Origin: a phage
Length of the DNA stretch: 60,198 bases
Assembly: GCA_018175315.1 (NCBI GenBank)
Contig: GCA_018175315.1_4769.1
Reading direction: 5' to 3' (one strand)
Positions 891 to 52,368 of this stretch are shown here, piece by piece. A program made the translations under genes and the position numbers. Under the pieces are notes generated by a model. The model did not search any database and had not been told where the DNA came from. It was given only the letters and a program-made list of their open reading frames with translations. The first letter of the stretch is position 1. Each line of letters opens with the position of its first letter.

Positions 891-892
891 TT

Positions 893-2898: not shown

Positions 2899-2928
2899 TG
2901 GGGCATTACTTATTTATAGGGGATTGCA

Positions 2929-4354: not shown

Positions 4355-4378
4355 TATCAAAACATATCACGTTATAAT
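4349..4378 (+). promoter_or_regulatory. promoter candidate TTGTAA-N18-TATAAT immediately upstream of terminator hairpin
   Basis: Perfect -10 TATAAT at 4373-4378; -35-like TTGTAA overlaps the stop codon of the upstream gene. Confidence 0.3.
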
Positions 4379-4379
4379 G

Positions 4380-4408
4380 AAAGCGCCCAATGAGGCGCTT
4401 TCTTTTTC
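4380..4408 (+). terminator. rho-independent terminator
   Basis: Stem AAGCGCC / GGCGCTT with loop CAATGA followed by TCTTTTT. Confidence 0.6.
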
Positions 4409-4423
4409 ACTAGAGGATTTAAG

Positions 4424-5131
4424 ATGAATATTAATCAACAAGCTCCCGAGTCCCGTTCTAAAGAAAACGATATGTATTTAGACGTGCATTCGGTATTCTC
4501 TACCATTCAGGGTGAAGGTCCATTCTGCGGCCAACCTGCTGTATTTGTGCGTCTTGCTGGGTGCAACCTGCAATGTCCTGGCTGTGATACGGATTATACT
4601 GTTGGTCGTAGTCTTTATCATATTGTCGATATTATGCGTTTAATCGAAAGCCGTAAGCTGGAATCGGGCAATAGCACCTCACTTGTGGTTATCACTGGGG
4701 GTGAACCGTTCCGTCAGCAAATTAACCCGTTTATTGAACAACTGTTATCGCGCGGCTATTTGGTGCAAATTGAAACTAATGGGTCTATGCCTTTACCTAA
4801 GAACTTTTCCCAGTTACCTGTAATTGTATGTAGTCCCAAGACCTCAAAGATTCATCCTTCTGTGCTGCGCCGCGCTAATGCATTTAAATATGTACTTAAA
4901 GCGTGCTGTGTAAACGTGGAAGATGGTTTACCTCTTCAAGCATTAGATCATCAAGCTACGCCATTTATCGCTAGACCTCCGAAGGGTTTCAAGGGTAAGA
5001 TATATTTACAGCCAATGGACGAGCAGGATGAAGACCTTAACCACAGTAATATCCAAGCCGTTGTCCAAAGCTGTATGAAACACGGTTACACGTTGCAGCT
5101 TCAGGTTCACAAATATATCGGAGTGGAATAA
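4424..5131 (+). CDS. queE: 7-carboxy-7-deazaguanine synthase QueE (radical SAM)
   Basis: Radical-SAM CxxxCxxC motif (CNLQCPGC) near N-terminus; GAGG RBS; sits in operon with queC/queD/folE. Confidence 0.85.
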   Translation: MNINQQAPESRSKENDMYLDVHSVFSTIQGEGPFCGQPAVFVRLAGCNLQCPGCDTDYTVGRSLYHIVDIMRLIESRKLESGNSTSLVVITGGEPFRQQINPFIEQLLSRGYLVQIETNGSMPLPKNFSQLPVIVCSPKTSKIHPSVLRRANAFKYVLKACCVNVEDGLPLQALDHQATPFIARPPKGFKGKIYLQPMDEQDEDLNHSNIQAVVQSCMKHGYTLQLQVHKYIGVE

Positions 5132-5385
5132 TGCGTGTGTTAAGCCAGGTTGTGCATACTAAAGATGTTAATTTTTGTGGTGTCACTTTAACCGTTCCAA
5201 GTCGAGTGGATTATCTGGCAGCCGACAAGGATGGGAATGTTTGGGGATATGAAGCAATTCCTCCAGAACTTAGCCATCGCTTTGATAGATGGTTGCCAGC
5301 AGATCCGGAAGCTTGCGAGTACGATGAAATAGCTGATGTAGATCTTGAAGGCTTAGACTGGACTCAAACATTAACGGAGGTTTAA
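5131..5385 (+). CDS. hypothetical protein (inside deazaguanine operon)
   Basis: 84-aa ORF, GGAG RBS, ATG overlaps queE stop (translational coupling). Confidence 0.5.
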   Translation: MRVLSQVVHTKDVNFCGVTLTVPSRVDYLAADKDGNVWGYEAIPPELSHRFDRWLPADPEACEYDEIADVDLEGLDWTQTLTEV

Positions 5386-5598
5386 ATGATCACTTTGGAA
5401 GAAGCGAAACAGCATCAGGAAATGATCACTGAACTGGTAGAAAAACTTAATTCTTCAATTGCCCACGCTACTATGCAGGGCGTGCATGTAGAATTAGATA
5501 TTAATTACGTTAGCACAATTGGAGCGCGCAATCACCCAATTGTGATGTCAAACGTAACAATTAACCCTTGTGATATTAAAGGTGAAGTAAATGAATAA
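5386..5598 (+). CDS. hypothetical protein (inside deazaguanine operon)
   Basis: 70-aa ORF with GGAGG RBS immediately after upstream stop. Confidence 0.45.
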   Translation: MITLEEAKQHQEMITELVEKLNSSIAHATMQGVHVELDINYVSTIGARNHPIVMSNVTINPCDIKGEVNE

Positions 5599-6313
5599 AT
5601 TAGATAAAATGGTATTCCCTGTAAAAAATCATAACTCCGCCGTTGTCGTCCTGTCTGGCGGCCAGGACAGTGTGACCTGTTTGGGTCTTGCACTTAATAA
5701 CTATGACAAAGTCTACGCTATTGGTTTTGCATACGGTCAACGTCATAACATTGAGCTGGCTTGTGCTAATCAAATCTGTAAAGAGCACGATGTCCCGTTT
5801 GTTGTCTTTGAATTACCTGCTTTGAAACAGATTGGTAATAGTGCTTTAATCGGGAACGAAGGGGATGTTAACGAACATCACGAACAGCACAACAACCTTC
5901 CGGCAAGCTTTGTACCAAACCGTAATGCTCTTTTCCTGACTACCGCGCACGCCTACGCGCAGAAGGTTGGAGCCCGATATGTGGTTACAGGCGTTTGTGA
6001 AACAGACTATAGCGGTTATCCGGATTGCCGCCGGCAGTTTGTAGACATGCTTGAAGCTACATTAAACGTTGCATATGAAACAGATATTTATTTCGTTACC
6101 CCGCTTATGCGTTTAAATAAAGCAGAAACGTTTGAGCTGGCGGATAAGGTTGGTTTCTTAACCACAGTGATTGAACAGTCCCATACTTGCTATAATGGCG
6201 TCCGTCGCACTCTGCATGACTGGGGATATGGTTGCGGTGAATGTCCTGCGTGCAAACTGCGTGCTAAAGGGTACAGCGAATTTATGGATAACGCTTACAG
6301 CAAACACGTTTGA
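5591..6313 (+). CDS. queC: 7-cyano-7-deazaguanine (preQ0) synthase QueC
   Basis: PP-loop SGGQDS; C-terminal Zn-binding cysteines (CYNG...CGECPAC). Confidence 0.85.
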   Translation: MNKLDKMVFPVKNHNSAVVVLSGGQDSVTCLGLALNNYDKVYAIGFAYGQRHNIELACANQICKEHDVPFVVFELPALKQIGNSALIGNEGDVNEHHEQHNNLPASFVPNRNALFLTTAHAYAQKVGARYVVTGVCETDYSGYPDCRRQFVDMLEATLNVAYETDIYFVTPLMRLNKAETFELADKVGFLTTVIEQSHTCYNGVRRTLHDWGYGCGECPACKLRAKGYSEFMDNAYSKHV

Positions 6314-6433
6314 TCTTACCGCGAAAACCGCACCGCTAGCGCATTGTTTAGGGTGCGGGAACCCAACTATACTACTAAAGCTTTTAAACCCAACAACCAG
6401 CGAATAACGCTGTTAAAACTGGAGAACAAAAGT

Positions 6434-6913
6434 ATGAAATTTATCGTTGCTTATCTGGCTGCAATCACATTCGTAAATCTGGGCTTTTCCTACCTTCCAA
6501 TGCTTAACACGCCTCTTGGCGTAGTCCCCATGATGGCTTTCTTTGTAGGTATTATCTTTGTTCTGCGTGATTACGCACAGCGTAACGCTGGCAAAGGCGT
6601 TATCCCTGCAATGATTGTGGGTTGCATCCTTAGCTGGGTATTTGGGGATCCTGCTGTTGTAGTTGCATCCGTTGCATCCTTTGCTCTTAGCGAGTTTGCG
6701 GACTATGCGGTATACACGATTACTAAGAAGCCTTTCCATCAACGAGTATTTATCAGCTCTTTGGTAGCTGTACCGATTGACTCCATTGTGTTCTTAAGTA
6801 TTATAGGTATTGTTAATCCGGGATCAATGGTAGCAATGAGCTTAAGTAAGTTCACAGCATCCGCTATCCTTTGGGTTGTTTACGAAGTTCATTCACGTAC
6901 AGCAAGAGCGTAA
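6434..6913 (+). CDS. small polytopic membrane protein, possible queuosine-precursor transporter (YhhQ/QueT-like) by context
   Basis: GGAG RBS before ATG 6434; about 5 hydrophobic segments; embedded between queC and queD. Function is inferred from context only. Confidence 0.4.
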   Translation: MKFIVAYLAAITFVNLGFSYLPMLNTPLGVVPMMAFFVGIIFVLRDYAQRNAGKGVIPAMIVGCILSWVFGDPAVVVASVASFALSEFADYAVYTITKKPFHQRVFISSLVAVPIDSIVFLSIIGIVNPGSMVAMSLSKFTASAILWVVYEVHSRTARA

Positions 6914-9112: not shown

Positions 9113-9130
9113 TAGATAGCTTTACAGATC

Positions 9131-9166
9131 AAGCCCATATCGGTCATAATACTGGTATGGGCTTTT
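9131..9166 (+). terminator. terminator-like hairpin with T-run (weak)
   Basis: AAGCCCATA ... TATGGGCTT with 16-nt loop followed by TTTTT, between HNH and dpdA. Confidence 0.3.
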
Positions 9167-9191
9167 TAGTCATTGGAGGTTTATTTAAGAT

Positions 9192-14158: not shown

Positions 14159-14164
14159 TAAAGA

Positions 14165-14190
14165 AATACCCGCGTTCGCGCGGGTATTTA
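14165..14190 (+). terminator. stable hairpin with UUCG-type loop, weak U-tract
   Basis: AATACCCGCG-TTCG-CGCGGGTATT followed by TAAGG. Confidence 0.35.
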
Positions 14191-14194
14191 AGGA

Positions 14195-16298: not shown

Positions 16299-16369
16299 GA
16301 TAGTACCTCTGTTAAAAGCGCCCCAAGCGGAGGAGCGAAAGGCGCTTTAGTTTAACCACACTTCAACGA

Positions 16370-17206: not shown

Positions 17207-17235
17207 TAAAAAGCGCGCCCGAAGACGCGCTTGAA
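17207..17235 (-). terminator. rho-independent terminator downstream of tail-fibre gene
   Basis: Minus strand stem AAGCGCG / CGCGCTT followed by TTTTT; adjacent perfect palindrome ATTGACAGTCAAT at 17195-17207. Confidence 0.5.
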
Positions 17236-17246
17236 GTTAGATGTGG

Positions 17247-29877: not shown

Positions 29878-30682
29878 TATCTTCTCCTTTTTCTTCTACC
29901 TTTATTTTGATTTTGCATTTGACTTTCCATGAGTTTAGCATTTTGTTCAGCTTCTGACACGCGCTTTTCAAGCCATAGCTGCCGCAGTATTTCGCATTCG
30001 TACGGTTGAAGACGTAAGCCCATTGTCACTTGATAGCTGTGCAATTCTGTATAACTAAAATCTCCTCCAGTGTAGATATCATCAAATAAAGTAGATAGAT
30101 ATTCGAAGCAAAGCGGTATTTCCTTTTCCCGATATTCTTTAAGCTTAGGTGGCGTCTTACCAGACTGTTCCTCAACCTTTTGCAGTTGCGATAATAAAGA
30201 AGATCCCCCGCCGGGGACTTTGCTATTTAGTTCCCATTGGAGGATCTTCTTATCAATTAACTGTCTGCGCGCTTTTAGAAAAAATTACTATCTTTAGCGG
30301 CAAATACGTTAAGGTCTTCTCGGACAGTTGGGTTCTCCGTTAAGAACTCAAACACGTTATCAACAGTCGGTGGCTCGTCAAAAGTCCAACCTGCTACAAG
30401 GTTACACAGTGAACGGGTAAGGATATCTTCCTTCATAGCATCCGTTACTTCACCGTCTTTACCCTGCATAAGCGCCAACAGTTGACGCTGTGCTTTCAAT
30501 TCTGCGTCACGATACTCTGTGCAGTAGCGGCTACGAATGTAGAGTTTTTCGCCCGTGTCGCCTACACCAGGAATAACCACATTCATTGGCTTAGTGTTTG
30601 CCGGGTCATTTGCCCGGCTCACAGTTTTAAAATCACGGAAGCTTTTAGCTACTGCAACTTTGGCTTTTTTGGTGTCGGTCAT
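29877..30682 (-). CDS. tail assembly chaperone, -1 frameshift-extended form (lambda GT-like)
   Basis: Hand translation of the -1 frame from the slippery site (30278-30284) stays open for about 130 codons and stops at TAA 29877-29879, overlapping the tape measure ATG. Confidence 0.55.
30275..30682 (-). CDS. tail assembly chaperone (lambda G-like, short form)
   Basis: 135-aa ORF between major tail and tape measure genes; ends ...AATTTTTTCTAA, which contains slippery heptamer T_TTT_TTC. Confidence 0.65.
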   Translation of the reverse strand: MTDTKKAKVAVAKSFRDFKTVSRANDPANTKPMNVVIPGVGDTGEKLYIRSRYCTEYRDAELKAQRQLLALMQGKDGEVTDAMKEDILTRSLCNLVAGWTFDEPPTVDNVFEFLTENPTVREDLNVFAAKDSNFF

Positions 30683-34509: not shown

Positions 34510-34520
34510 GGTTGTTCTCC

Positions 34521-34555
34521 TAAAAAAGAGGGGACATAAATGTCCCCAAAATACT
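34521..34555 (-). terminator. rho-independent terminator after major capsid gene
   Basis: Perfect palindrome GGGGACAT-AA-ATGTCCCC; minus strand reads hairpin then CTCTTTTTT. Confidence 0.6.
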
Positions 34556-34578
34556 ACAGCGCGGCGTTGAGTGAAGCC

Positions 34579-35640: not shown

Positions 35641-35762
35641 ACTTGTCTCCAGGAAAAGGATTGATTTGTTTACTGTTGGTAGCCTTTCCCCGTGGAAGGC
35701 TGTTTAGGAACCCGTGTCCCTGATGTGTTGAAACTTAACATCAGGGACGTCGGGATGTCAAC

Positions 35763-41318: not shown

Positions 41319-41354
41319 GTTCCCTCCAAATAAAAGGGGCTAACGCCCCGTCAG

Positions 41355-42847: not shown

Positions 42848-43270
42848 TTAATAAGGCAGGATTTCAACGTCTTTGACCCAAGTGTGAATGATAAAAGCTC
42901 CAGGCTCTTCAGGATCTTGATCCGGACCAACATAGAACTTTTTACCTTCCCATCCTTTAATTGGATCATGCACAATAAACTTGTGATCTGTCATATCAAT
43001 CACAATCTGGTGCAATGCGCCAGGAATATTAAGACTTGGCACCGTGCACAGGAACAGACCTCCCATATGCAAAGTTTCACGCCCACCACCTTCTGAACAA
43101 TGATGCTGGACGCCGTTTTTAGTCAAATATTCGCTGATAGTAATTTCCCAGTTGTTATAATAACGACTATGAAATTCCTCAATCACCTTTTCAACAGGTT
43201 TATTAAGGATCATTGCTAGACACGCAGAAACGCATGTATTCAATGTTGGTTGCTTGACGTGTTTAATCAT
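42848..43270 (-). CDS. papain-like cysteine peptidase (C39-like domain)
   Basis: Q-x5-C-x2-A-x-LAMIL pattern (QPTLNTCVSACLAMIL) with downstream His (IVHDP); GAGG RBS. Confidence 0.5.
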   Translation of the reverse strand: MIKHVKQPTLNTCVSACLAMILNKPVEKVIEEFHSRYYNNWEITISEYLTKNGVQHHCSEGGGRETLHMGGLFLCTVPSLNIPGALHQIVIDMTDHKFIVHDPIKGWEGKKFYVGPDQDPEEPGAFIIHTWVKDVEILPY

Positions 43271-43271
43271 C

Positions 43272-43742
43272 TTATGCCTCGTATATGATTTCCGGCTCGT
43301 TATTATAAGGACGCAGCAGCAAACGCGCTACCAGCGCCGTACGCTCGCTTAACCCTTGCGGATGTACAAACCCAACGAACTGGTAATGACAACCGCGCAG
43401 GTGGTGTAGGCTCTTAGCACAATGGCACGCTTCCAAACGCAGTGTCTCGCCCGACTGCCATTTAACCACAATGGTAGAGCTCGCAGTCATGTTAATTTCT
43501 ACATCACCGATTTCAACCTGAAGACGCAGAACATCTTCTACAACATTACGGACATAGACAAGGATCTGCGATGTAGGCATAACAATGAGCCCATTCCAAT
43601 CCTTCCCGCGACCCAATCCGCAATAACGCGCAAAGTTGGCTATCAACTGCGTCTCTGTAACCTGTTTTACTTCAAACGACTTCTTCAGTTGGCAGTCTTT
43701 GGATTCGTCCATTACATCAACAATAGTTTTAACGTCAACCAT
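43272..43742 (-). CDS. hypothetical protein
   Basis: 156 aa from ATG 43742 with GGTGGAG RBS. Confidence 0.45.
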   Translation of the reverse strand: MVDVKTIVDVMDESKDCQLKKSFEVKQVTETQLIANFARYCGLGRGKDWNGLIVMPTSQILVYVRNVVEDVLRLQVEIGDVEINMTASSTIVVKWQSGETLRLEACHCAKSLHHLRGCHYQFVGFVHPQGLSERTALVARLLLRPYNNEPEIIYEA

Positions 43743-43744
43743 TA

Positions 43745-43966
43745 TTATCTCCACCTGTTACGGTCATCGCATTTATATTCATACTCAGTAATAACCTGAG
43801 GATACATTGACATAAAATTACCTTTCGCATCGTAGACATTGTTCCAAACAATATATTCCCGGCTGTTACCAGTACGTTGACAGTTTTGCCGCTCCATTTC
43901 TTTGGAGTCTACGATTGCAAATACAACAAAGGCAAGTATAACGCCTAGTATGATGACTATTTTCAT
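43745..43966 (-). CDS. small membrane/secreted protein
   Basis: 73 aa, hydrophobic N-terminus MKIVIILGVILAFVVFAIV. Confidence 0.45.
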   Translation of the reverse strand: MKIVIILGVILAFVVFAIVDSKEMERQNCQRTGNSREYIVWNNVYDAKGNFMSMYPQVITEYEYKCDDRNRWR

Positions 43967-44265
43967 GGGTTAATCCGATATTCTTTAATGTCCCTTAGCG
44001 TATCGCGCCAATCACTACCTTCAAGGTCAACTTCACCGCAATAGCGAACATGCAAACCGTATACTCCAAGCATCCATTGCTTACCAGATTCATAGCAAGA
44101 AGGTTTGGCGTCATAACAATGTACTTTACCGTCTGCGTCTACAGCGATAAAGTTAGCCCAGGGCTCAACAGGGACAGCAGACCCGTAATAGTCGGTAAAT
44201 ACTTGCGTCTCCTTGTTAACGGAACGAATCGCGTGTCCAGTTTCGTCCATTCCTAAATACAGCAT
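43963..44265 (-). CDS. hypothetical protein
   Basis: 100-aa ORF in tight array. Confidence 0.45.
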   Translation of the reverse strand: MLYLGMDETGHAIRSVNKETQVFTDYYGSAVPVEPWANFIAVDADGKVHCYDAKPSCYESGKQWMLGVYGLHVRYCGEVDLEGSDWRDTLRDIKEYRINP

Positions 44266-44316
44266 AACAGCCTCCAGATAATTAAGGGCTCCGTAGAGCC
44301 CATTATAGATTGATAA

Positions 44317-44682
44317 TTATACTTGTCCTATATTTTTCTGCCATTCACGAACAGTTTCTAGCATAGATTTATAATCGTCATCCCAATCATAATTCTCAAC
44401 ATCCTTTTGAAGTTTGGCAATCATTTCTTCAAAGCTGTTAGCTGGTAAGTAACTTTCACCAAATTCAGCAAGACGTTTCTGATAATCGGGACTTTCCTCA
44501 TCATCCCAGCCAAATTCAGCTTGAAATGAATCGCAACCAGAGCATGATCCATAAGACCCTTCGCAAACTCCCAATACACCATCTTTTCTTATCAGGGCAA
44601 GCCATTCACCCTGATAACAACCAAACTCAACAAAATCTAATACTTCGCATCCAGCAGCTTCTAATGCTAATTGGTAAGACAT
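44317..44682 (-). CDS. hypothetical Cys-containing acidic protein
   Basis: 121 aa with GSYGSCSGCDSF. Confidence 0.45.
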   Translation of the reverse strand: MSYQLALEAAGCEVLDFVEFGCYQGEWLALIRKDGVLGVCEGSYGSCSGCDSFQAEFGWDDEESPDYQKRLAEFGESYLPANSFEEMIAKLQKDVENYDWDDDYKSMLETVREWQKNIGQV

Positions 44683-44924
44683 TCTTCCTGCTCCTCTACA
44701 TATTTAGTGACACATTTTTGAAAATTAAGAACGATATTTTTCTCTTTTACGGAGTGAAATTTAACACGTTCCGGACAAATAATCCAGCCTTCAAAACGTT
44801 GAGTAGCGTCATTCCATGCTGCCCGACCATAATACCCGCGATAGGGGCCTAATCGCATTGCATTTACCTCTGTAACCACATTGTTGGAGGTGCTGGGTGT
44901 AGCGCTTACACTGGAGTCGCACAT
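44667..44924 (-). CDS. hypothetical protein (first gene of minus-strand block)
   Basis: AGGAGG RBS before ATG 44924. Confidence 0.5.
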   Translation of the reverse strand: MCDSSVSATPSTSNNVVTEVNAMRLGPYRGYYGRAAWNDATQRFEGWIICPERVKFHSVKEKNIVLNFQKCVTKYVEEQEECLTN

Positions 44925-45096
44925 AAATACCTCCTTGATGCTCTAAAAACAGGTGTGAATTGATAGAAATTGGTTGCATCCGCTTAAAGATGATAGCTAT
45001 GGAGCAGCTACAAGACGAATTATACGTTGACGACTCAGAATTTACTACCAAAATCCATATATTCAGAAAGGATGAGCGCAATATATTCAAAAAGAA

Positions 45097-45230
45097 GGTA
45101 GGTGGGGTCATGGATGTAGGTGGATAGGCTATGTGACAGGTGAGATTTAGGCGTGGACTTACTATCAGGATGGATAAGGCGCCCTCGGGTGATTATTAGT
45201 ACCCTGATGATCCTAGGTGGGGTCTATGAG
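45097..45230. repeat. direct repeats TAGGTGGGGTC(A/T)ATG (2 copies) plus variant GTAGGTGGATAGG in non-coding leader
   Basis: Copies read at 45099-45109 and 45214-45224; variant at 45116-45128. Confidence 0.45.
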
Positions 45231-45632
45231 TCGGCTCATTGGACCGGTCTGTGACTGTAAGATCTGTTATTCTTCCAAACGAATCTATTTCATTCGTCAT
45301 TATACTGATGTATATCGTGAGCTGCCTATATACATGGCGTGCATATAGCAGAGCAGGCCGTACGCGTTAACGTACAGCCTGTGAGCATTGAAATTAGCGC
45401 CGCTTTGTGGGGTACAGCGTGCTCGTTGTGTGTTGGTAATGCATTACCATTACCTTTGTGCATTAGCTCGCTGTGGTGCTGCTGTGTGCGTTATCCTTGC
45501 GAGCGCATGTCCGCATATATGCTTTTACCGCGCATCATGGCACTATGCCAGCCATGAACTGCATATTCTGCGCGCATTGCTGCAATTAATAACGCGTGCT
45601 GTGCGCGTGTAAGCGTGTATTTGCGTGACATA

Positions 45633-45818
45633 TTAGTACACCTCTACCAGTTTAACGATGGCGCTAAAATCGGCGATTCCAAGTTGCATCTCTGTACGGA
45701 CGAAATCTTCTGCCACGATACGACTGGGAGCTGTAACGTCTCCGATATATTCGCCATAGTACATAACTTTAAATGTTCTGTTGCTATTATTTACAGACTT
45801 CACAATGTTCGTAGACAT
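45633..45818 (-). CDS. hypothetical protein
   Basis: 61 aa with GAGGTG RBS. Confidence 0.5.
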   Translation of the reverse strand: MSTNIVKSVNNSNRTFKVMYYGEYIGDVTAPSRIVAEDFVRTEMQLGIADFSAIVKLVEVY

Positions 45819-45886
45819 AATACACCTCGTTATAATTAGTTAGCTTATTAATGAGCACTGTATTAATGCTCATTGTATAAGTTAGC

Positions 45887-46090
45887 TTAGTTAAATTCGA
45901 AGACAGCAATAGTTTTCATTGTATCAGAACTATAGATGTAGATATCTCCGCGGTCTTCTACTACTGCACGCCATTCCTCTTCACCTTTAATAATGCAACG
46001 AGTTTTAAGATCCATTTTATACTCTGCGCCTTCTACGAAACCGAAATTATTGTTTGCAACCATTACGCAGATAACGTTACGAATAGACAT
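45887..46090 (-). CDS. hypothetical protein
   Basis: 67 aa with AAAGGGG RBS. Confidence 0.5.
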   Translation of the reverse strand: MSIRNVICVMVANNNFGFVEGAEYKMDLKTRCIIKGEEEWRAVVEDRGDIYIYSSDTMKTIAVFEFN

Positions 46091-46296
46091 GATGTAAACC
46101 CCTTTAAGTTAATTTGTAGTACCCTTGCGGTATGTGTATATAGTAGTGCTAGACTGATCATATGTCTACACCTTTTTGCATCTTTTTATAAAAATATTTT
46201 GGCAGCTTTATATGTATGTGCACGCCCGCGCGAATACTCCAGATAATGTGATGTTAGTTAGGCCATTAGTGCTAAACATGCAGGGCAAGCGTATTT

Positions 46297-46324
46297 TTCA
46301 CTAGATGCAAAACAATTCTAAAAT
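46297..46324 (+). promoter_or_regulatory. promoter candidate TTCACT-N16-TAAAAT in divergent intergenic region
   Basis: Hexamers read by eye; upstream of plus-strand gene block. Confidence 0.25.
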
Positions 46325-46416
46325 AGCACTTTTGGCCTATTCAATATCACGATGCATCGCTATTATGTACCCATAGCAACACGATACTACTTCTTAACCA
46401 CACTTGGAGGCGCGTT

Positions 46417-46584
46417 ATGTCCAGCTCATACTTCACTATCATGTACTTCGGTCGCAGTTATTGCATCGACAACAAATACCGCCACCTTACCCGCGCTCAG
46501 CTGGAGTGGGCAATCAGCTTATATAAGCAGGAAGAATTTTATTTCCTTGAAGTCGCACTGGATTATGTAAGCGAAAATAGTTGA
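46417..46584 (+). CDS. small hypothetical protein (55 aa)
   Basis: GGAGG RBS 6 nt before ATG; below the 60-aa cutoff of the ORF track. Confidence 0.4.
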   Translation: MSSSYFTIMYFGRSYCIDNKYRHLTRAQLEWAISLYKQEEFYFLEVALDYVSENS

Positions 46585-46652
46585 TTTATATCTTGCCTAG
46601 TTGATCTGGCTGGGCAATAATAAGTCAACTTAAACAAAAAGAGGATTACATT

Positions 46653-46901
46653 ATGGCTACTTCTATCATCACCAAATTTTTGGCACCAACTAACACCAAA
46701 GGCGCACGCATTGTAGTTAAAGGTTTTGGCAAGCGCAAAGTCTATAGCTGGGTCTATGCTATCGACGTAACGCTTAACCATAAAGCGGCAGTACAGCAGT
46801 TCCTCAAAGCGTTTAACGCCGAAAACGACACCGACTATAGCATCGTTGCTTTCGCAAGCATGGATATCGCAACCGTCGATTACGTAGCAATCGTCGCATA
46901 A
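46653..46901 (+). CDS. hypothetical protein
   Basis: 82 aa with AAGAGGA RBS. Confidence 0.55.
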   Translation: MATSIITKFLAPTNTKGARIVVKGFGKRKVYSWVYAIDVTLNHKAAVQQFLKAFNAENDTDYSIVAFASMDIATVDYVAIVA

Positions 46902-46974
46902 GTTTTCTTATACACTGCTCATCATTACGGTGGGCAGTAATAAGCAAACTAACATTAACGAAAGGAGCTATACC

Positions 46975-47586
46975 ATGTCTAAAGTAACTCACCGCGAACA
47001 GGACAAAATGCGTTACACCATGAAAACGAATGCACGCCGCGCCCTTAAGACCCGTTGGGGCCAGGTTGCACGCGATGCACACGAGCAGTTAATCCATCAG
47101 GACGAGATCGGTTTTTACATCGTCGAGAAGGAAGTCCTTCAGGTACTGCGCGACCATAAAAAAGCGCAACAACCGGAGCAGAAAGTCCCGGCACCAACCG
47201 CCGCGCCAGCTGCCAGCGTCTCGGTACTGCGCCCGATGGTAAATCCGGAAATCGTCAAAAGCTGCCTCGAAGCTTTGGAGCAGGAGGAAGAGAAAGATAT
47301 GAAACACGCAAAAGCTGCCACGCAGGTTTCTGAAATCAAAATTGAAGAGCCAAAAGCTGCCGCGCCAAAACAGGATGCAAAAGCTGCTCGCTGTGATTTC
47401 AAAAATGGCGCTCGCAAGCCTCTGAAAGGAAAAACTGCCGAAGTGTGGGCAATGGGCGACAAACTTTTAGCCGAACTGGGCCGCACGCCGGAGCTGAAAG
47501 AGATGAAAGCTGCAATGCCTTCTTACAACGGGACAACGGTTGCCATTCAGTTCTACGCTTGGAGAACTTATCATGGACTTAAATAA
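46975..47586 (+). CDS. hypothetical protein
   Basis: AAAGGAG RBS before ATG 46975; 203 aa, charged and Ala/Pro-rich. Confidence 0.55.
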   Translation: MSKVTHREQDKMRYTMKTNARRALKTRWGQVARDAHEQLIHQDEIGFYIVEKEVLQVLRDHKKAQQPEQKVPAPTAAPAASVSVLRPMVNPEIVKSCLEALEQEEEKDMKHAKAATQVSEIKIEEPKAAAPKQDAKAARCDFKNGARKPLKGKTAEVWAMGDKLLAELGRTPELKEMKAAMPSYNGTTVAIQFYAWRTYHGLK

Positions 47587-48055
47587 TATCTTCAGCTATC
47601 AAAACGGAGAATTATTTTGGAAAATAAGACCAGCTAAACAGATTTCTATCGGTAGTAAAGCTGGTGCACCAAATAAGCGCGGATACATCCTGATAGGATA
47701 CAAGGGAAAACTATATCGTCGTTCAAGGTTAGTATGGGAGTTGCATAAAGGCCCGATACCGGAAGGACATCAAATAGACCATATTAACCATTGTACATGG
47801 GACGACCGCATAGAGAATTTGCGCTTAGTGTTGCCAAGCGATAATAGTAAAAATCTTAGCAGGGCAATAAATAACTCTACCGGAGTAACAGGAGTTTACT
47901 TTAATAAAAAGGCATGTAAATTTCAGGCTTACATTCAAATAAACGGATTGAAAAAGTATCTAGGTTTATATGATACTATAGAGGACGCAAAACAGGCCCG
48001 TAAACAAGCGGAAGAGCATTACAAATTTCACGCCAACCACGGACTGGACGCATGA
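47573..48055 (+). CDS. HNH homing endonuclease with AP2-type DNA-binding domain
   Basis: HNH core (GYKGKLYRRSRLVWELHKG ... IDHINHCTWDDRIENLRLV) and AP2-like segment (VTGVYFNKKACKFQAYIQINGLKKYLGLYDTIEDAKQA); GGAG RBS. Confidence 0.7.
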   Translation: MDLNNIFSYQNGELFWKIRPAKQISIGSKAGAPNKRGYILIGYKGKLYRRSRLVWELHKGPIPEGHQIDHINHCTWDDRIENLRLVLPSDNSKNLSRAINNSTGVTGVYFNKKACKFQAYIQINGLKKYLGLYDTIEDAKQARKQAEEHYKFHANHGLDA

Positions 48056-48092
48056 TCTATAACCACATCAACCAACGGGCTTCTGCGGGAGC

Positions 48093-48422
48093 CTATTTCA
48101 AATAAAGATTTTCAATCATGTCGTTCTTCGGGTCGTTGATATACTTCCCGAAGACCGCACCTTTACCCTGTGGGCCGTGGAACATTTCATAAACGACTCG
48201 AGCTCTTAAGACTTTACGGTTTTCACCTTGGCAAATAGGTGCTAAGCAAATTTTACAATGAAGATGCGGAGCACAAACATCTTTAACTTCGTCACCTTTG
48301 GATATGCCGTATTTCTTAAAGTCCTTCTTCCAGAATAAATCTCCATCCTTATACTCAAAATATTTATTCCATTTTGGCTCTTTCTTCCACCAGTGTTTTT
48401 TATAATCCCATTCAAGACTCAT
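48093..48422 (-). CDS. HNH endonuclease (putative)
   Basis: GGAGTG RBS before ATG 48422; INDPKNDMIENLYL resembles the HNH_3 H-x-D...N...NL core. Confidence 0.55.
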   Translation of the reverse strand: MSLEWDYKKHWWKKEPKWNKYFEYKDGDLFWKKDFKKYGISKGDEVKDVCAPHLHCKICLAPICQGENRKVLRARVVYEMFHGPQGKGAVFGKYINDPKNDMIENLYLK

Positions 48423-48582
48423 ATTCACTCCAAACAATAGTTTAATTTTGCGCGCTACGTAAGACAGCCTCCTATAGACTTGCTATTGCTGTGGAGGCTG
48501 CCCGTGTTACCGGACCTCTGCAATAACTCCTCTCTGCCTTAATGCAGATTATAGCTTGATATACCTTCCGATCACAATAGTT

Positions 48583-49250
48583 CAATAATTTATTCCATTA
48601 TTCCAATTATTCCGGAATCTGGAATAATACTGTATATCCATACACCATATTCCATTAACAATCCTGTCACGAATTGTATTCTTTCACTTTTTGTGAGTTT
48701 TGTGATTTTTTGTAGCAGACCTTGCGAACGTCAACTAATACCAATAGGTACTATATACATTACTAATAAAACCTTATTTTATATATATTTATGGTATTAA
48801 TTATTAACTTTTAGTTTCTATCCATTTTTAGTCTGTTGACTGAAAGTTTTAGGTTTTTGCGCTCCAGAGTACCGATTCCATTATTCCATCAAGTAGGAAT
48901 AATTTATTCCACTTCCATCATTTGGATTTTTACCCATTCCATTCACTATTCATTTAGTATCTATCCTATTGATTTATATACGTTTTTTACTAACAGTCGG
49001 GATTTGGGTGTTAGGGTAAAAAATGCGTTTTACCCCAAAACGCAAAAACTTACTGCACCAACTTATTGTTTTTATTAAAGTTTTTAGCAACAGTGGCACC
49101 ACAAAACTTCGCAAAACTTCGCAAAACTCACAAAACTTTCCGTCACATTGTGCAAACTGCGGAGCACCAACTATTCCTACCCAAAACTTTCCATCACATG
49201 TGGTTATATATTAACAATCCGCTCACATCATAACTTCAGGTGGAATAATT
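48583..49250. repeat. iteron-like repeat region (GGAATAAT / ATTATTCC family; CAAAACTT tandem repeats; AT-rich core)
   Basis: TTATTCC at 48590, 48598, 48607, 48881, 48904; GGAATAAT at 48621, 48896, 49242; CAAAACT at 49102, 49112, 49122, 49131, 49182; AT-rich 48741-48830; no ORF with RBS. Confidence 0.5.
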
Positions 49251-49297
49251 GTGGCTGGCTTACTATGGATTGTGTATAGTGCTGTTAGGAGGTAGGT

Positions 49298-49513
49298 ATG
49301 GACTGTCAAAAAGAATTTGATCTTAAATACATAACCACATCAGAAATTGAAAACCGCTTCGGTCTTAGCCGTCGCAAATTATGTTCGCTTCGCGGTAAGC
49401 TGCCGGGCGAAGTTAAGATTGCTAACGTGTATGTCTATGTTCGTGCAGTTGCAGAGCCTGTCTTAATGTTGCACGCTGGCCGGGTTGTGCCGGAGGTTGG
49501 TCGTGGGTCGTAA
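49298..49513 (+). CDS. small HTH-type DNA-binding protein (putative)
   Basis: AGGAGG RBS; ITTSEIENRFGLSRRKLCSLR resembles a helix-turn-helix. Confidence 0.45.
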   Translation: MDCQKEFDLKYITTSEIENRFGLSRRKLCSLRGKLPGEVKIANVYVYVRAVAEPVLMLHAGRVVPEVGRGS

Positions 49514-49790
49514 GTGCAGAACTGTCCCGGGCAGCAATTTCAAAGGCCGTGGGCTCGCACGCCGAAAGCCCCGAGTGCCGCGGGAAAATGTGAGCGGGCG
49601 TGAGGGCGTTACTTTCGATTACAAAACTGGTAAATGGCTCGCCCGATTAACATGGGTAGATGCGAGCGGGGAAACAAGGCGAACTTTCCTTGGACTGTAC
49701 GACAGCATGAAAGACGCTTGCGAAGTATATGATGCAAATAATTCAGCATATGAAGAATGGCGGAGGAAACAGATCTATGGCTACAATTGA
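49503..49790 (+). CDS. AP2-type DNA-binding domain protein (start uncertain; GTG 49503 proposed)
   Basis: GVTFDYKTGKWLARLTWVDASGETRRTFLGLYDSMKDACEVY parallels the AP2-like segment of the HNH at 47573; GGAGG precedes GTG 49503. Confidence 0.4.
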   Translation: MGRKCRTVPGSNFKGRGLARRKPRVPRENVSGREGVTFDYKTGKWLARLTWVDASGETRRTFLGLYDSMKDACEVYDANNSAYEEWRRKQIYGYN

Positions 49791-50022
49791 TCCTTTCATG
49801 AAACAGGTTAATTCAAAATCTTCATGTTGCTATTTTGGCAAGTCTTTAGACATCAACGGTTATGTTGTTGAACATGTGGAAGGTGAAGGCTATCGCTTAT
49901 ACGTTAAAGTTTTGGATAGCGTGGAATATGTTAACACATTTGCGTCCAAGCGAGAAGCTCGGGACACAGTTGATAATATTAAGGCGGCAATTATATCCAT
50001 GTTAAAACTAGCTTCTAATTAA
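49777..50022 (+). CDS. hypothetical protein
   Basis: GGAGGAAA RBS before ATG 49777; 81 aa. Confidence 0.5.
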   Translation: MATIDPFMKQVNSKSSCCYFGKSLDINGYVVEHVEGEGYRLYVKVLDSVEYVNTFASKREARDTVDNIKAAIISMLKLASN

Positions 50023-50031
50023 GGACAAGCA

Positions 50032-52368
50032 ATGGAACTGTTTCCCGCTGAAATTAAAGCTTTCCCACAATGGGCGGTCGCCGATGCGGATAAAAAGCCG
50101 CTCGTATGGGATAACGATATTGGACGTTTGATGGCGGCGGACGTTACCGATCCGGATATGCTTATGACGTTTGAAGCTGCCAAAGGTTGCGCTGCTCATT
50201 TCAATAAACCTTATATTGGATTTGTGCTTACTGCCCAAGACCCGTTCACCTGCATCGATCTGGATGTGAAGAATGCAACCAATGAACCAGACCCCAAGAA
50301 GCACACGACGCCGGAACAGTTGCGCCGCTTCGAACAGATCATGACTGCGTTCGATACTTACACCGAAGTGAGTCGCTCAGGCTTGGGTGTTCACCTGTGG
50401 TTAAGAGGTAACATCGGTAAAGGTCGTCGACGTGATGGTGTCGAGGTTTATAGTCAGGAGCGTTTTATTATCTGCACGGGCAATCCCGTCTACAACAAAC
50501 CAGTTGCAGAACGTGATCATTACCTTACTATGCTTGTGAATGAAATTGATCTTCAGCGCAAGACATATGAAATTGAACTGGTAGAAAAAGATCCGGTAGA
50601 AGATGATGCAACTATTCATCAGCGTGCGCTTGAAGCAGATAACGGCGATAAGTATGCACGGTTATTTAACGGTGAATGGGTTGAAATGGGATTCCCCTCC
50701 CAGTCTGAAGCAGACCTTGCCCTTATTTCCATGTATGCATTCTACACGGAAAGTAATGAGCAATGTCGTCGTCTGTTTCGTTATAGTGCACTGGGAAAAC
50801 GTGAGAAGGCTAATAAGAACAATGTTCATATTGACCGTTGCTTGCGTATGTGTCGAGGTCGCATGGAGCGTGAGCGCATTGCCCAGGAAAACGTAGCGGC
50901 GCTGGCGCGGGATTACGCTGCCCGTATGCAAGCTGCACACAGCACAATGCAGCAGGTAGCGGAAATGCCTGTAACCACAGTCAGCCCGTCTGGTGAAATA
51001 GTAGTTGCAGAAAGTACGTCCATTGATGCAACCGCTATTGAGTGGCCTCCGGGGCTTGCTGGGGAGCTTGCGAAGTACATCTACAAAGCATCGCAACGTC
51101 CCGTGAAAGAAATTGCAATCACCGCATCGTTAGCATTTCTGTCTGGTGTGTGCGGTAAAGTATGGAATACTATCACCAACACAGGGCTGAACGGTTATTT
51201 TGTGCTTATTGCTCGATCTGGTGTGGGTAAAGAGATGCTTCACGCCGGACCCAGCTATATTTGCAAGCAAGTAGGGGAGCAATTACCGCAAGTTCATGAA
51301 TTTGTAGACATGACTAACTATGCGTCCGGTCCTGCATTGCGTAAAAGTTTTGCGGATCATAGTTCGTTTGTGAACATTAACGGAGAGTTTGGCAAAACCA
51401 TCAAAGGTATGGCAACAGCTCAGCCCGGTACTGCAAACTATACTCTGAAGCAAACTATCACAGATGTATATCAAAAATCTGGCGCAATGGATGTTGTTGG
51501 CGGTATTGGATATTCTGATAAGGCTAATAATACCAAAACAATGGAAGGGGTGGCGTTCAGCGTGCTGGGAGAAACAACACCGGACACGTTCTTTGAAGCA
51601 TTAACCCGTGAAATGATGGAAGACGGTTTCTTGTCCCGTTTCCACATTGTGCAATATGAAGGAGATCGAGTTCCTGCAAACGAAAACCCTGAGATTATAA
51701 TGCCCCAGCAGTTGAAGGACATGGTGTGCCATCTTGTTAACCACACCTTAGTAACAATGGCGAAGTTTCAAACGGTCACAGTTCAGTTAAGTCCTGAAGC
51801 TGAAAGGATTGAACGGGAGTTTAACCTGTTATGTGACGAACACATTAACGCAACCAAAGACGAAGCTATCCGTCAGCCGTGGAACCGTGCGCACCTTAAA
51901 GCTCTGCGCCTTGCGTCCCTGCTAGCGGTAGGGGAAAACTGGATCAACCCTGTCGTTCAGCCAAATCACATGCAATGGGCGGTAGATTTTGTTACGCATG
52001 GACAGGACATCATGATCAACGCATGGGAAAAAGGTACTATTGGCGGTGATGATGAAACGCGCGTGAAGGCTATTTGCCAGGTCTGCAAAGACTATCTTGG
52101 CGGTAAGATTGCATGTGATCGTAAGGAGCTGCGCGTTGACGGTATCATCCCGAAGGCAACTATCACACGCAGGACATACGGTCTGGCAGCATTCAAGAAC
52201 CACCGGATGGGGGCAGGTACTGCGACAGACCTGACTATCAAACAACTTGTAGACATGGGCGCGCTCGTTCCAGTCACGCGTGAAGATGCGTTGAAGCGTA
52301 ATTTCAGGGGATTGGGTTGGTATATAGACGAGTCCATTGAGAGTGTTTTCAAGGACTTAAGCAAATAA
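50032..52368 (+). CDS. DNA primase (prim-pol/AEP-type N-terminus with C-terminal ATPase/helicase-like region)
   Basis: AEP motifs FTCIDLDVKN (DxD) and SRSGLGVHLWL (SxH); Walker A-like ARSGVGKE; 778 aa. Confidence 0.65.
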   Translation: MELFPAEIKAFPQWAVADADKKPLVWDNDIGRLMAADVTDPDMLMTFEAAKGCAAHFNKPYIGFVLTAQDPFTCIDLDVKNATNEPDPKKHTTPEQLRRFEQIMTAFDTYTEVSRSGLGVHLWLRGNIGKGRRRDGVEVYSQERFIICTGNPVYNKPVAERDHYLTMLVNEIDLQRKTYEIELVEKDPVEDDATIHQRALEADNGDKYARLFNGEWVEMGFPSQSEADLALISMYAFYTESNEQCRRLFRYSALGKREKANKNNVHIDRCLRMCRGRMERERIAQENVAALARDYAARMQAAHSTMQQVAEMPVTTVSPSGEIVVAESTSIDATAIEWPPGLAGELAKYIYKASQRPVKEIAITASLAFLSGVCGKVWNTITNTGLNGYFVLIARSGVGKEMLHAGPSYICKQVGEQLPQVHEFVDMTNYASGPALRKSFADHSSFVNINGEFGKTIKGMATAQPGTANYTLKQTITDVYQKSGAMDVVGGIGYSDKANNTKTMEGVAFSVLGETTPDTFFEALTREMMEDGFLSRFHIVQYEGDRVPANENPEIIMPQQLKDMVCHLVNHTLVTMAKFQTVTVQLSPEAERIEREFNLLCDEHINATKDEAIRQPWNRAHLKALRLASLLAVGENWINPVVQPNHMQWAVDFVTHGQDIMINAWEKGTIGGDDETRVKAICQVCKDYLGGKIACDRKELRVDGIIPKATITRRTYGLAAFKNHRMGAGTATDLTIKQLVDMGALVPVTREDALKRNFRGLGWYIDESIESVFKDLSK

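Follow-up and report, generated by a model that had tools for sequence, protein, structure and literature searches.

Five early RNase III processing signals, R0.3, R0.5, R1, R1.1 and R1.3, are known from bacteriophage T7 (Dunn and Studier 1983; Nicholson review, PMC3867540). Substrates of the E. coli enzyme contain a helix of about two turns (~20-22 bp), in which the cut site and the loop are at least ~10-11 bp apart (PMC1540722, PMC6212723). Two sets of base pairs matter within that helix. In the proximal box, position 1 is G-C, positions 2 and 4 are A-U or U-A but not G-C or C-G, and position 3 is A-U. The distal box lies 5-6 bp loopward of proximal-box position 1 and consists of U-A followed by U.G (PMC1540722, Pertzev and Nicholson 2006). 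T4-type phages carry a different repeated element, the promoter/stem-loop cassette (PeSL), which combines a consensus sigma70 promoter with an efficiently terminating G/C-tract stem (Arbiol et al. 2010, PMC2839356).

Here, we describe three hairpins, H1, H2 and H3, in the early region of a Seuratvirus genome. Comparative sequence analysis leads us to propose, with moderate confidence, that they are host RNase III processing signals in early mRNA, cut near UAA^UAAG. RNase III-type intercistronic signals are a familiar kind of element, but this kind is not yet described for this phage group. Our survey of the literature found no RNase III work on these phages and no transcript-end data for any Queuovirinae phage.

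Three hairpins in divergent early operons

The window, meaning the whole stretch of DNA that we analysed, is 60,198 nt long and represents a complete genome of a CAjan/Seurat-like E. coli siphophage of the genus Seuratvirus. Small genes without known function make up its variable early region, where they form two divergent operons (Table 1). The intergenic region between the operons presumably carries early promoters for both.

A first-pass annotation had noted two near-identical elements upstream of consecutive genes and placed them at 46609-46628 and 46932-46951. Both 20-mers exist, but those positions are off by 1-2 nt; the copies actually lie at 46611-46630 and 46931-46950. TGGGCAATAATAAGTCAACT and TGGGCAGTAATAAGCAAACT are identical at 17 of 20 bases, lie 320 nt apart and end 22 and 24 nt 5' of the starts at 46653 and 46975. 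The genome-wide search that the annotation had suggested found exact GGGCANTAATAAG at these two places only in the 60,198-nt window, and allowing up to two mismatches gave 7 matches against 5.45 expected, which is no enrichment. In an exact-motif database scan, we recovered three Seuratvirus contigs together with six chance matches, none of which is a hairpin and three of which lie within sequence that looks coding by eye. Some pair of 20-mers agreeing at 17 positions is unremarkable on its own within 60 kb. The motif is non-random because of its context, namely its spacing to two start codons, its position in the 3' arms of strong hairpins and the recovery of H1 by a model built from H2 and H3.

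In each copy, the consensus TGGGCA-N-TAATAAG-NN-AACT forms the 3' arm of an intercistronic hairpin of 50-52 nt. The complementary 5' arms had been overlooked in the first-pass annotation, as had a third copy on the minus strand (45887-45838). H1-H3 all lie in the sense of their own operon; each starts at the stop codon of the preceding gene, and 19-24 nt separate its end from the next ATG. In each, an A/U-rich lower stem leads through a small asymmetric internal loop to a 10-bp upper stem capped by a 5-nt loop. The paired parts comprise 10+11 (H1), 10+5+5 (H2) and 10+5+2+2 (H3) base pairs. The stop codon of gene A (TGA, 46582-46584) lies inside the 5' arm of H1. H2 starts with the last base of the gene B stop (TAA, 46899-46901), and H3 likewise starts with the last base of a TAA (45889-45887); 19 nt lie between its end and the ATG at 45818.

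Table 1. Features of the early region, in coordinates of the 60,198-nt window
Feature	Position	Strand	Description
Leftward operon gene 2	45633..45818	-	61 aa, no family match; 3' of H3
H3	45838..45887	-	diverged copy in leftward early operon; upper stem 45874-45865 with 45859-45850
H3 loops and lower stem		-	loop 45864-45860; internal loop AC opposite A (45849); CUUAU with AUAAG
Predicted RNase III cut, H3	45847..45848	-	CUCAUUAA^UAAG, +/- ~2 nt; 29-nt leader before ATG at 45818
Leftward operon gene 1	45887..46090	-	67 aa, no family match; 5' of H3
Divergent intergenic region	46091..46416	.	gene orientation, sigma70-like matches on both strands, nested inverted repeats
Gene A	46417..46584	+	55 aa, PHROG 18706, no known function; opens rightward early operon
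H1	46579..46630	+	lower stem 46579-46589 with 46620-46630; upper stem 46593-46602 with 46608-46617
H1 loops		+	loop 46603-46607; internal loop AUC (46590-46592) opposite UA (46618-46619)
Sigma70-like match (predicted)	46593..46621	+	TTGCCT-17 nt-AATAAT; overlaps H1 upper stem; 9/12 consensus positions
Motif copy 1, TGGGCAATAATAAGTCAACT	46611..46630	+	3' half of H1 upper stem, internal loop, 3' lower arm
Predicted RNase III cut, H1	46620..46621	+	3' arm, UAA^UAAG, +/- ~2 nt; 32-nt leader before gene B ATG
Gene B	46653..46901	+	82 aa, PHROG 3199, no known function; H1 and H2 on either side
H2	46901..46950	+	upper stem 46919-46928 with 46929-46938; loop AUUAC
H2 lower part		+	lower stem of two 5-bp pieces; internal loop AC opposite A (46939)
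Motif copy 2, TGGGCAGTAATAAGCAAACT	46931..46950	+	3' half of H2 upper stem, internal loop, 3' lower arm
Predicted RNase III cut, H2	46940..46941	+	GGGCAGUAA^UAAG, +/- ~2 nt; 34-nt leader before gene C ATG
Gene C	46975..47586	+	203 aa, PHROG 22313, no known function; conserved

The predicted folds of H1 (-23.5 kcal/mol, z -4.5) and H2 (-21.3 kcal/mol, z -4.1) are far more stable than those of shuffled sequences, and more stable in the sense than in the antisense orientation (-14.3 and -17.0, respectively). The sense fold of H3 is weak in this genome (-13.9 kcal/mol, z -1.4) and its antisense fold is stronger (-23.3); this copy was detected by pattern plus fold and by covariance models. When a covariance model was built from H2 and H3 alone, H1 was the sole further sense-strand match in the window (E = 0.0015). 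Rfam covariance models gave no match at gathering thresholds across the whole window, and at E values up to 10 they gave only chance snoRNA and miRNA-precursor matches around the three hairpins.

Conservation and covariation in related phages

The fold is kept through compensatory changes in Seuratvirus, Nonagvirus, Craquatrovirus and Vidquintavirus. We aligned 13 sequences of the family (alignment A6) and found that 93.8% of cells were paired, compared with 76.9% after shuffling and 35-49% when the partners were slid. Changes on both sides occurred in 9 of 15 pairs (26 cells), although the family sequences share descent and such counts from the alignment are not independent. H3 itself has changed from A-U to G-C in Dru_SM1 and CAjan. 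The hairpins are 92-100% identical in relatives whose flanking gene B is at 70% (H2 is 100% identical), which suggests that they are under selection. The upper stem is 9-11 bp in every member of the family. One fixed stem position holds a U.G wobble in 8 of the 13 sequences. Because this wobble recurs and because copies on the opposite strand track their own operon, the element appears to act at the RNA level and in the sense orientation.

The same type of hairpin precedes the gene C homologues of Nonagvirus, Craquatrovirus and Vidquintavirus, so that a family hairpin stands 5' of gene C in all four genera examined. Stop codons are also followed by similar hairpins in contigs of unrelated metagenomic phages, for which no shared DNA similarity could be detected and INPHARED gave no BLAST match. 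An early pattern scan of IMG/VR used a gap range suited to H1 only, and nearly all of the matches listed were due to chance.

The sequence around the internal loop is conserved across genera, and the distal stem covaries. An RNA-binding protein, either an early phage product or a host protein, could therefore use the hairpin as an operator by reading the UUAUAC...CA-N-UAAUAAG internal loop and its flanking pairs, and its binding would control the translation or stability of the downstream gene, such as gene C. In favour of such an operator, sequence is conserved beyond pairing, the family hairpin always lies just 5' of a ribosome-binding site and always precedes the gene C homologue, and the adjacent early proteins have no known function. 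Yet a search of six early proteins encoded beside the hairpins and of four further leftward ones detected no RNA-binding domain. With the Shine-Dalgarno sequence outside the hairpin, occlusion is not an obvious mechanism. Moreover, a spread over several genera and unrelated metagenomic phages is better explained by a host factor than by a protein confined to one lineage, which also counts in favour of RNase III processing. We therefore consider an operator distinctly improbable. "Ser/Thr kinase" and "Hfq" labels in the GenBank record of phage CSP1C were checked as possible partners and had no Pfam support.

Each genome carries one to three hairpin copies, all close to early promoters. Lambda nut is a 15-nt boxB hairpin with boxA, and HK022 put is a two-hairpin element of ~65 nt. 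Like these sites, H1-H3 are candidate cis-acting RNA hairpins found in each of two divergent early operons, close to the first gene or behind it. Unlike lambda nut, however, the flanks of H1-H3 lack boxA (GCUCUUUA); they resemble UUUAACAA loosely, without GCUC. In addition, the leftward copy is wholly missing in many relatives, a loss that would not be tolerated if antitermination fed both operons. Antitermination of the nut/boxA type was rejected on these grounds.

RNase III determinants and predicted processing

H1-H3 have the two-turn helix and, like the rest of the family, the upper-stem length that E. coli RNase III requires, and alignment A6 contains the proximal box in the correct register. 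Position 1 is G-C in 12 of 13 sequences and position 2 is U-A in all 13. Position 3 is U-A in eight, A-U in four and C-G in one (H2). Position 4 is A-U in seven, G-U in two and a C.U mismatch in four, as in T7 R1.1; the catalytic antideterminant, G-C or C-G at this position, is found in none of the 13. The recurrent U.G wobble coincides with distal-box position 2, where it is present in six of eight paralogue classes. Distal-box position 1 is U-A in 8 of 13 sequences, and the pair adjoining position 2 (A14:U25 in R1.1) is A-U in 10 of 13. There are exceptions: H1 of the window has G-C rather than U.G at the distal box, H2 has C-G at distal-box position 1, like T7 R1, and the distal box is out of register in PSTCR4_b and Vid5.

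For comparison, we collected 9-12-bp hairpins from 0.95 Mb of unrelated viral DNA. In this background set, 13.6% of hairpins carry U.G at the corresponding position, 1.5% have a strict proximal box and 0.22% have both. The box pattern is not very specific, and is also present in 4 of 141 generic hairpins in the window, some of which are terminator-like AAAG...CUUU stems.

The resemblance to T7 extends to the layout of the early message. T7 early sites and H1-H3 are intercistronic and lie in polycistronic early mRNA from the host RNA polymerase. In both cases the hairpin starts at the upstream stop, the next AUG follows ~19-31 nt past its 3' end, and a lower stem and an internal loop support an upper stem of 9-10 bp with a loop of 4-5 nt. 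Paralogous copies are similar in sequence around the internal loop in T7 as well as here, and proximal-box pairs and, with the exceptions given above, distal-box pairs occupy the same register (T7 R1, ACAGGUCAUC/GGUGGCCUGA; H2, ACUGCUCAUC/GGUGGGCAGU). The differences are equally clear. The internal loop is far smaller here (2-3 nt opposite 1-2 nt, compared with ~4 opposite 5 in T7), and the lower stem, unlike that of T7, is A/U-rich with conserved letters UUAU/AUAA. There are one to three copies per genome rather than ten, the hairpins stand in both arms of a divergent promoter region, and cleavage is predicted. Searched with a covariance model made from the five T7 early sites (R2, ACUCAAGGUC...UGGCCUUUAUGAUU), the window gave no sense match to H1-H3 at E values up to 10, and H3 matched in antisense only (E = 3.4). 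Reciprocally, the family model (R3) had no match in T7 positions 700-6800. These negative results in both directions speak against homology to the T7 sites, and the likeness is one of architecture and determinants.

Of the explanations offered in the first-pass annotation, an RNA processing site is the one we favour, on the inference that a covarying, transcript-oriented hairpin fits E. coli RNase III substrates in its size, placement and conserved pairs. To place the predicted cuts in Table 1, we took T7 R1.1 as the model (Pertzev and Nicholson 2006, PMC1540722) and counted 2 nt in the 3' direction from the base that pairs with proximal-box position 4, as mapped onto alignment A6; they fall within the motif that had originally been noticed. 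According to this model, the host RNA polymerase would transcribe the divergent early operons, and each hairpin would fold once the ribosome terminates at the stop codon at its base. Host RNase III could then bind the ~20-bp, two-turn helix and cut near UAA^UAAG on the 3' arm, where the upper and lower stems meet at the internal loop. The upstream message would keep a protective 3' hairpin, and the downstream message would begin with a 5'-monophosphate leader of 29-34 nt that contains the Shine-Dalgarno sequence. The stability and translation of adjacent early genes would thereby be uncoupled, much as with RNase III at the five T7 early sites. An RNase E site in the 3' flank was rejected, as RN^WUU is not consistent across the three copies.

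A stable hairpin immediately 3' of a stop codon might also act without a specific endonuclease, as a plain intercistronic stabiliser that blocks 3'-to-5' exonucleases or as a weak terminator that pauses and attenuates the polymerase. WebGeSTer and TransTermHP do label three orthologous hairpins as rho-independent terminators (SA126VB, OL960573). However, the 3' flanks of the three hairpins (UAAACAAAAAG, AACAUUAACG and AAUUAUAACG) contain no U-tract, and the hairpins are absent from a consensus terminator scan of positions 43000-52000. The genuine terminators of the same genome differ in being G+C-rich with U-tracts. Intrinsic termination, which calls for a G+C-rich stem followed by a U-tract, was thus rejected. 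A generic barrier, moreover, needs no conserved internal loop, fixed 10-bp upper stem or wobble pair, and we regard a plain stabiliser or weak terminator as quite unlikely.

If the RNase III reading is confirmed, H1-H3 would provide Queuovirinae and related siphophages with their first described post-transcriptional signal. The prediction of exact processed mRNA ends would aid the mapping of early transcription units, and automatic "terminator" annotations in deposited genomes would need correcting. Given that the hairpin is conserved in four genera and in unrelated metagenomic phages, RNase III-type intercistronic signals, best known in T7, would then be a wider device of coliphage early operons, one that coincides with the boundaries at which early-gene cassettes are exchanged. 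Several phages of the BASEL collection belong to Queuovirinae and related siphophages, a group in which hardly any early gene has a known function.

Promoter-like sequences and cassette boundaries

The hairpins mark places where gene content changes. An unrelated gene takes the place of gene A in CAjan-type phages, and the breakpoint coincides with the 5' base of H1. For H3, the upstream gene is likewise replaced, and here too the breakpoints lie at hairpin bases. Gene B together with one hairpin is a presence/absence indel among Seuratviruses and is missing in Seurat, SHIN8 and SA80RD. H1-H3 thus share with PeSLs the flanking of variable orphan genes and the marking of indel and replacement boundaries. 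Both are repeated intergenic cassettes of ~50-100 bp in which stop codon, stem-loop, Shine-Dalgarno sequence and ATG follow one another, both lie in variable regions of small orphan early genes, and in both, one phage may have two copies around a gene where a relative has a single copy.

These parallels raise the possibility that H1-H3 are a PeSL-like mobile regulatory cassette, a promoter/stem-loop unit for which RNase III is unneeded. Such a unit would attenuate read-through from upstream, start transcription anew ahead of the next small gene and provide homology for the recombination that shuffles early gene cassettes. In H1 the stem-loop stands between -35-like and -10-like hexamers (TTGCCT and AATAAT), as in one PeSL subclass (Arbiol et al. 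2010, PMC2839356). The 17-nt geometry recurs in H1 orthologues, Vid5 and PSTCR4_a, and the gene B indel parallels an ORFan flanked by PeSLs that is replaced by a single PeSL. The coincidence of mosaic breakpoints with hairpin bases, and the location among variable small genes without known function, point the same way. In contrast, H2 and H3 have poor promoter hexamers at 15-nt spacing, and neither they nor JenP1_d, PSTCR4_b and PSTCR4_c show a -35 or a spacing (14-15 nt) that would be acceptable; a promoter is thus not what unites the family. The stem bases are A/U-rich and without a U-tract, unlike effective terminators, and there are three copies rather than dozens. Sigma70-like matches are also not enriched in the region (26 against 20.1 expected). 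A PeSL-like function leaves the conserved U.G wobble and the proximal-box pattern unexplained; we consider it rather unlikely as the explanation, and it may be a secondary role and not an alternative to RNase III processing.

A broader proposal is that the hairpins form a horizontally mobile, multifunctional boundary of early-gene cassettes across otherwise unrelated phage lineages, which we think unlikely. If true, an element of ~50 nt would unite an RNase III or host-factor signal, sometimes a promoter, and a homology patch for gene swaps, and a PeSL-like system with a defined RNA-level function would exist beyond the T4 group.

The first-pass annotation had also considered a phage-specific promoter and had judged that the motif does not fit sigma70 spacing. 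Only three copies exist, clustered within 1.1 kb, and base pairing accounts for the conserved letters; a phage-specific promoter was rejected for these reasons. The judgement about sigma70 is right for the second site but not for the first, where TTGCCT and AATAAT are separated by 17 nt (46593-46621). If the first site is a promoter at all, it fits the ordinary sigma70 type.

Hairpins at early gene junctions

Megablast of 45500-48500 matched 35 phage records, all Seuratvirus-like (including CAjan, Seurat, Dru_SM1 and several BASEL phages), and no plasmids; therefore, the window is approximately the complete genome of a Queuovirinae siphophage of E. coli. Annotated relatives identify the locus as a variable early region, in which small genes of unknown function diverge from the intergenic segment 46091-46416. 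Pfam searches found no domains in the proteins adjoining the hairpins described here, and none of their PHROG families has a known function. The divergent early promoter region also contains nested inverted repeats, which overlap sigma70-like matches on both strands and may constitute an operator or regulatory architecture.

The first-pass annotation listed two near-identical elements before the genes at 46653 (gene B) and 46975 (gene C). Both 20-mers are present, at 46611-46630 and 46931-46950 (1-2 nt from the positions originally assigned), with 17 of 20 bases in common. A genome-wide search recovered exact GGGCANTAATAAG only at these two sites, and up to two mismatches gave 7 matches versus 5.45 in shuffles, so the 20-mer match by itself is weak evidence. 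What makes the pair real is its context. A complementary 5' arm, overlooked in the first pass, lies 25-30 nt upstream of each motif, and the motif itself is the 3' arm of a hairpin.

RNA from 46570-46655, which contains the first hairpin (H1), folds at -23.5 kcal/mol (z -4.5; opposite strand -14.3), and 46895-46977, which contains the second (H2), folds at -21.3 kcal/mol (z -4.1; opposite strand -17.0). The opposite strands fold less well because several sense pairs are G.U. In both H1 and H2, a 5-nt loop caps an upper stem of 10 bp, which a small asymmetric internal loop (AUC/UA or AC/A) separates from the lower stem. Searching by pattern and fold together revealed a third copy (H3) between the first and second genes of the leftward operon. 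When a covariance model was built from H2 and H3 only, H1 was the sole other sense match anywhere in the window (E = 0.0015 with filters off), and a later family model again returned H1, H2, H3 and no others. Each hairpin lies in the sense of its own operon, starts at or over the upstream stop codon and ends just ahead of the Shine-Dalgarno sequence.

Coordinates of the hairpins and of other features in the window and in related phages
Feature	Coordinates (strand)	Remarks
H1	46579-46630 (+)	upstream stop TGA 46582-46584; ends 22 nt before ATG 46653; predicted cut 46620^46621
H2	46901-46950 (+)	upstream stop TAA 46899-46901; ends 24 nt before ATG 46975; predicted cut 46940^46941
H3	45887-45838 (-)	upstream stop TAA 45889-45887; ends 19 nt before ATG 45818; predicted cut 45848^45847
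Direct repeat TAAGCTAACT	45889-45880, 45847-45838 (-)	10 nt; flanks H3 upper hairpin
Nested inverted repeats	46174-46350	46248-46274 with 46324-46350; 46174-46192 with 46294-46312
Canonical intrinsic terminators	4355-4423, 9113-9191, 14159-14194 (+)	between genes
Canonical intrinsic terminators	16299-16369, 17207-17246, 34510-34578, 41319-41354 (-)	between genes
Repeat-rich region	48100-49300	
Direct repeat AAACTTCGCAAAACTT	49104-49138	three copies
Repeat ATTCCATTATTCCA	48592, 48875	
Repeat AATAATTTATTCCA	48584, 48898	
Inverted arms	48689-48712, 49112-49135	24 nt
Gene C repeats	47247-47518	~24-nt unit with CAAAAGCTGC
Long intergenic hairpins	30176-30274 (-), 35641-35762 (-)	whole gaps -34 and -41 kcal/mol, respectively
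IMG/VR contigs L149/L154	5250-5311 / 5853-5914	same-design hairpins
IMG/VR contig L152	3133-3190	same-design hairpin
IMG/VR contig L162	2844-2903	same-design hairpin
JenP1 (L139)	3657-3734	second intercistronic hairpin, 21 bp; -28.7 kcal/mol, z -4.5
Vid5 (L137, MG948468)	3600-4600	GenBank genes on minus strand; plus-strand family hairpin 3876-3937, ORF 3971-4513
CSP1C (L147, PQ202980)	88-339, 2452-2601	labelled "RNA-binding protein Hfq", "serine/threonine protein kinase"

Conservation and exchange at the hairpins

Orthologous hairpins were found in all Seuratvirus loci examined. Identity to one IMG/VR relative is 70% for gene B, 92% for H1 and 100% for H2; judged by sequence identity, the hairpins are better conserved than the surrounding genes. 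H3 of Dru_SM1 and CAjan carries a compensatory swap of A-U to G-C, and the H1 orthologues of Seurat, yong3 and STP-SP5 retain pairing through swaps of G-C to C-G and U.G to G-C. Using conserved gene C to reach distant relatives, we found family-type hairpins between the gene A and gene B homologues of Nonagvirus JenP1, at three consecutive junctions in Providencia phage PSTCR4 (Craquatrovirus) and directly before the gene C homologue of Pantoea phage Vid5. We aligned 13 family members by sequence, and the alignment proved consistent with the structure: 93.8% of cells pair, whereas shuffling the columns gives 76.9% and sliding the partners 35-49%, and both sides change in 9 of 15 pairs (26 cells), though shared ancestry means that these counts overstate independence. 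Across the family, UUAUA..UG is invariant on the 5' side, as is CA-N-UAAUAA on the 3' side, so the core motif noted initially represents the internal-loop region's conserved 3' face. The original observation is thus confirmed, and the two 20-mers turn out to belong to a family of three hairpins that has relatives in four genera.

An exact-motif scan found the motif in hairpin context in three Seuratvirus contigs only. A specific IMG/VR scan returned more sense hairpins directly after stop codons, of the design UUAUAC-AUUGCC...GGCAAU-A-AUAAG, in unrelated A+T-rich phage contigs that have no BLAST matches in INPHARED. The next ORF lies 86-175 nt downstream of these hairpins. The element type may therefore reach far beyond the Queuovirinae.

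The hairpins also mark sites of gene exchange. Among relatives, unrelated genes take the place of gene A and of the gene upstream of H3, with breakpoints exactly at the hairpin bases, and gene B is missing together with one hairpin from Seurat, SHIN8 and SA80RD. Both patterns fit the shuffling part of the main rival explanation, a cassette resembling the PeSLs of T4-type phages. PeSLs unite a stem-loop and a Shine-Dalgarno sequence with an early promoter, and they mediate orphan-gene shuffling (PMC2839356). H1 even has the geometry of one PeSL subclass, with the stem-loop between the hexamers of TTGCCT-17 nt-AATAAT, and H1 orthologues, Vid5 and one PSTCR4 hairpin (PSTCR4_a) share this arrangement. 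The first-pass statement that no sigma70 promoter fits is therefore incorrect for H1, but it holds for H2, which, like H3 and several distant members, lacks a usable promoter. Moreover, the stems are not terminator-like. Given the missing promoters and the form of the stems, recombination-linker behaviour is likely a by-product or second role of the hairpins rather than the primary one.

The sense fold of H3 in the window is poor (-13.9 kcal/mol, z -1.4) and the antisense fold better (-23.3); the cause is the 5' lower arm, which arrived together with another upstream gene. In CAjan the relation is the opposite. The H3 5' arm and upstream gene of CAjan-type phages both differ from those of the window. 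With its flanking direct repeat, the arrangement at 45838-45889 (-) resembles a scar left where a cassette was exchanged within the hairpin.

Candidate functions of the hairpins

The hairpins had no match in Rfam. In the SA126VB record, WebGeSTer and TransTermHP label three orthologous hairpins as terminators. However, a U-tract is absent after every copy and our consensus terminator scan omits H1-H3; in the genuine terminators of this genome, by contrast, a short G+C-rich stem is accompanied by a U-tract. A repeated phage-specific promoter, one of the first-pass proposals, is rejected because there are only three copies, all within 1.1 kb. Of the options raised there, RNA processing is the one supported, by the hairpin family and by its RNase III-like layout and base pairs.

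We folded five T7 early intergenic regions from NC_001604 for comparison. We take these to be the RNase III sites R0.3, R0.5, R1, R1.1 and R1.3 (after Dunn and Studier 1983). The assignment is consistent with published details of R1.1 (PMC1540722). Like H1-H3, the T7 hairpins start at the upstream stop codon (UGAUAG... in T7) and have an internal loop between the lower stem and an upper stem of 9-10 bp, which is capped by a loop of 4-5 nt; the next AUG is ~20-30 nt downstream in T7 and 19-24 nt downstream of H1-H3. Covariance models run in both directions detected no homology between H1-H3 and the T7 sites.

E. coli RNase III reads an 11-bp helix between cut and loop (Pertzev and Nicholson, PMC1540722). 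The distal box is U-A then U.G; after four intervening pairs comes the proximal box of G-C, A-U/U-A, A-U and A-U/U-A, the last adjoining the scissile bond, with G-C or C-G at proximal positions 2 and 4 acting as antideterminants (PMC1540722). As read on the family alignment, these determinants are correctly spaced. Proximal position 1 is G-C in 12 of 13 sequences, position 2 is U-A in all 13, position 3 is U-A or A-U in 12, and position 4 is A-U, G.U or C.U and never G-C or C-G. In the distal box, U-A and U.G each occur in 8 of 13, and the pair adjoining the second position (A14:U25 in R1.1) is A-U in 10. The distal U.G is absent from H1 of the window, and H2, like T7 R1, has C-G as its third proximal pair. 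In unrelated viral contigs (0.95 Mb), 13.6% of 9-12-bp hairpins have U.G at the second distal position and 0.22% combine it with the strict proximal box. The pattern is loose: it fits 4 of 141 generic hairpins in the window, among them AAAG...CUUU stems that resemble terminators.

If the R1.1 pattern applies here, the cut in the 3' arm would come at UAA^UAAG, 2 nt past the nucleotide paired with proximal position 4; the conserved motif encloses all three predicted positions. With so small an internal loop, cleavage of a single strand would be favoured and would leave a 3' hairpin on the upstream message, which is a known stabilising outcome (PMC3867540). Our analysis thus favours processing of early polycistronic transcripts by host RNase III at these hairpins as the most likely mechanism, with about an even chance of being correct. 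A protein operator on the hairpins and a plain exonuclease barrier are possible with lower probability. A literature search found no transcript mapping for these phages. The predicted processing can be checked at single-nucleotide resolution, at hairpins that coincide with early-gene exchange boundaries.

Further features of the window and its relatives

Upstream of the primase module, direct and inverted repeats crowd a segment of ~1 kb that lacks a convincing gene; the segment may serve as a replication origin with iterons or have a regulatory role. Within gene C, four to five repeat copies at irregular spacing (53, 42, 27 and 153 nt) imply a repeated lysine/alanine-rich peptide motif in this conserved 203-aa early protein of unknown function. 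Two unusually long intergenic hairpins in the structural/late region, which fold at ~-28 kcal/mol in scan windows of 60 nt, show no sequence relationship to the H1-H3 family. The same is true of the second JenP1 hairpin, which has CAUUG...CAGUG next to its loop, lies just before a gene with a gene C-like C-terminus and may be another RNase III-type site.

The Hfq and kinase names of the small early CSP1C ORFs have no Pfam support and look spurious. In Vid5, the plus strand carries the gene C homologue (tblastn), an ATG-started 180-aa ORF and the family hairpin, and the deposited annotation of this segment may be on the wrong strand.
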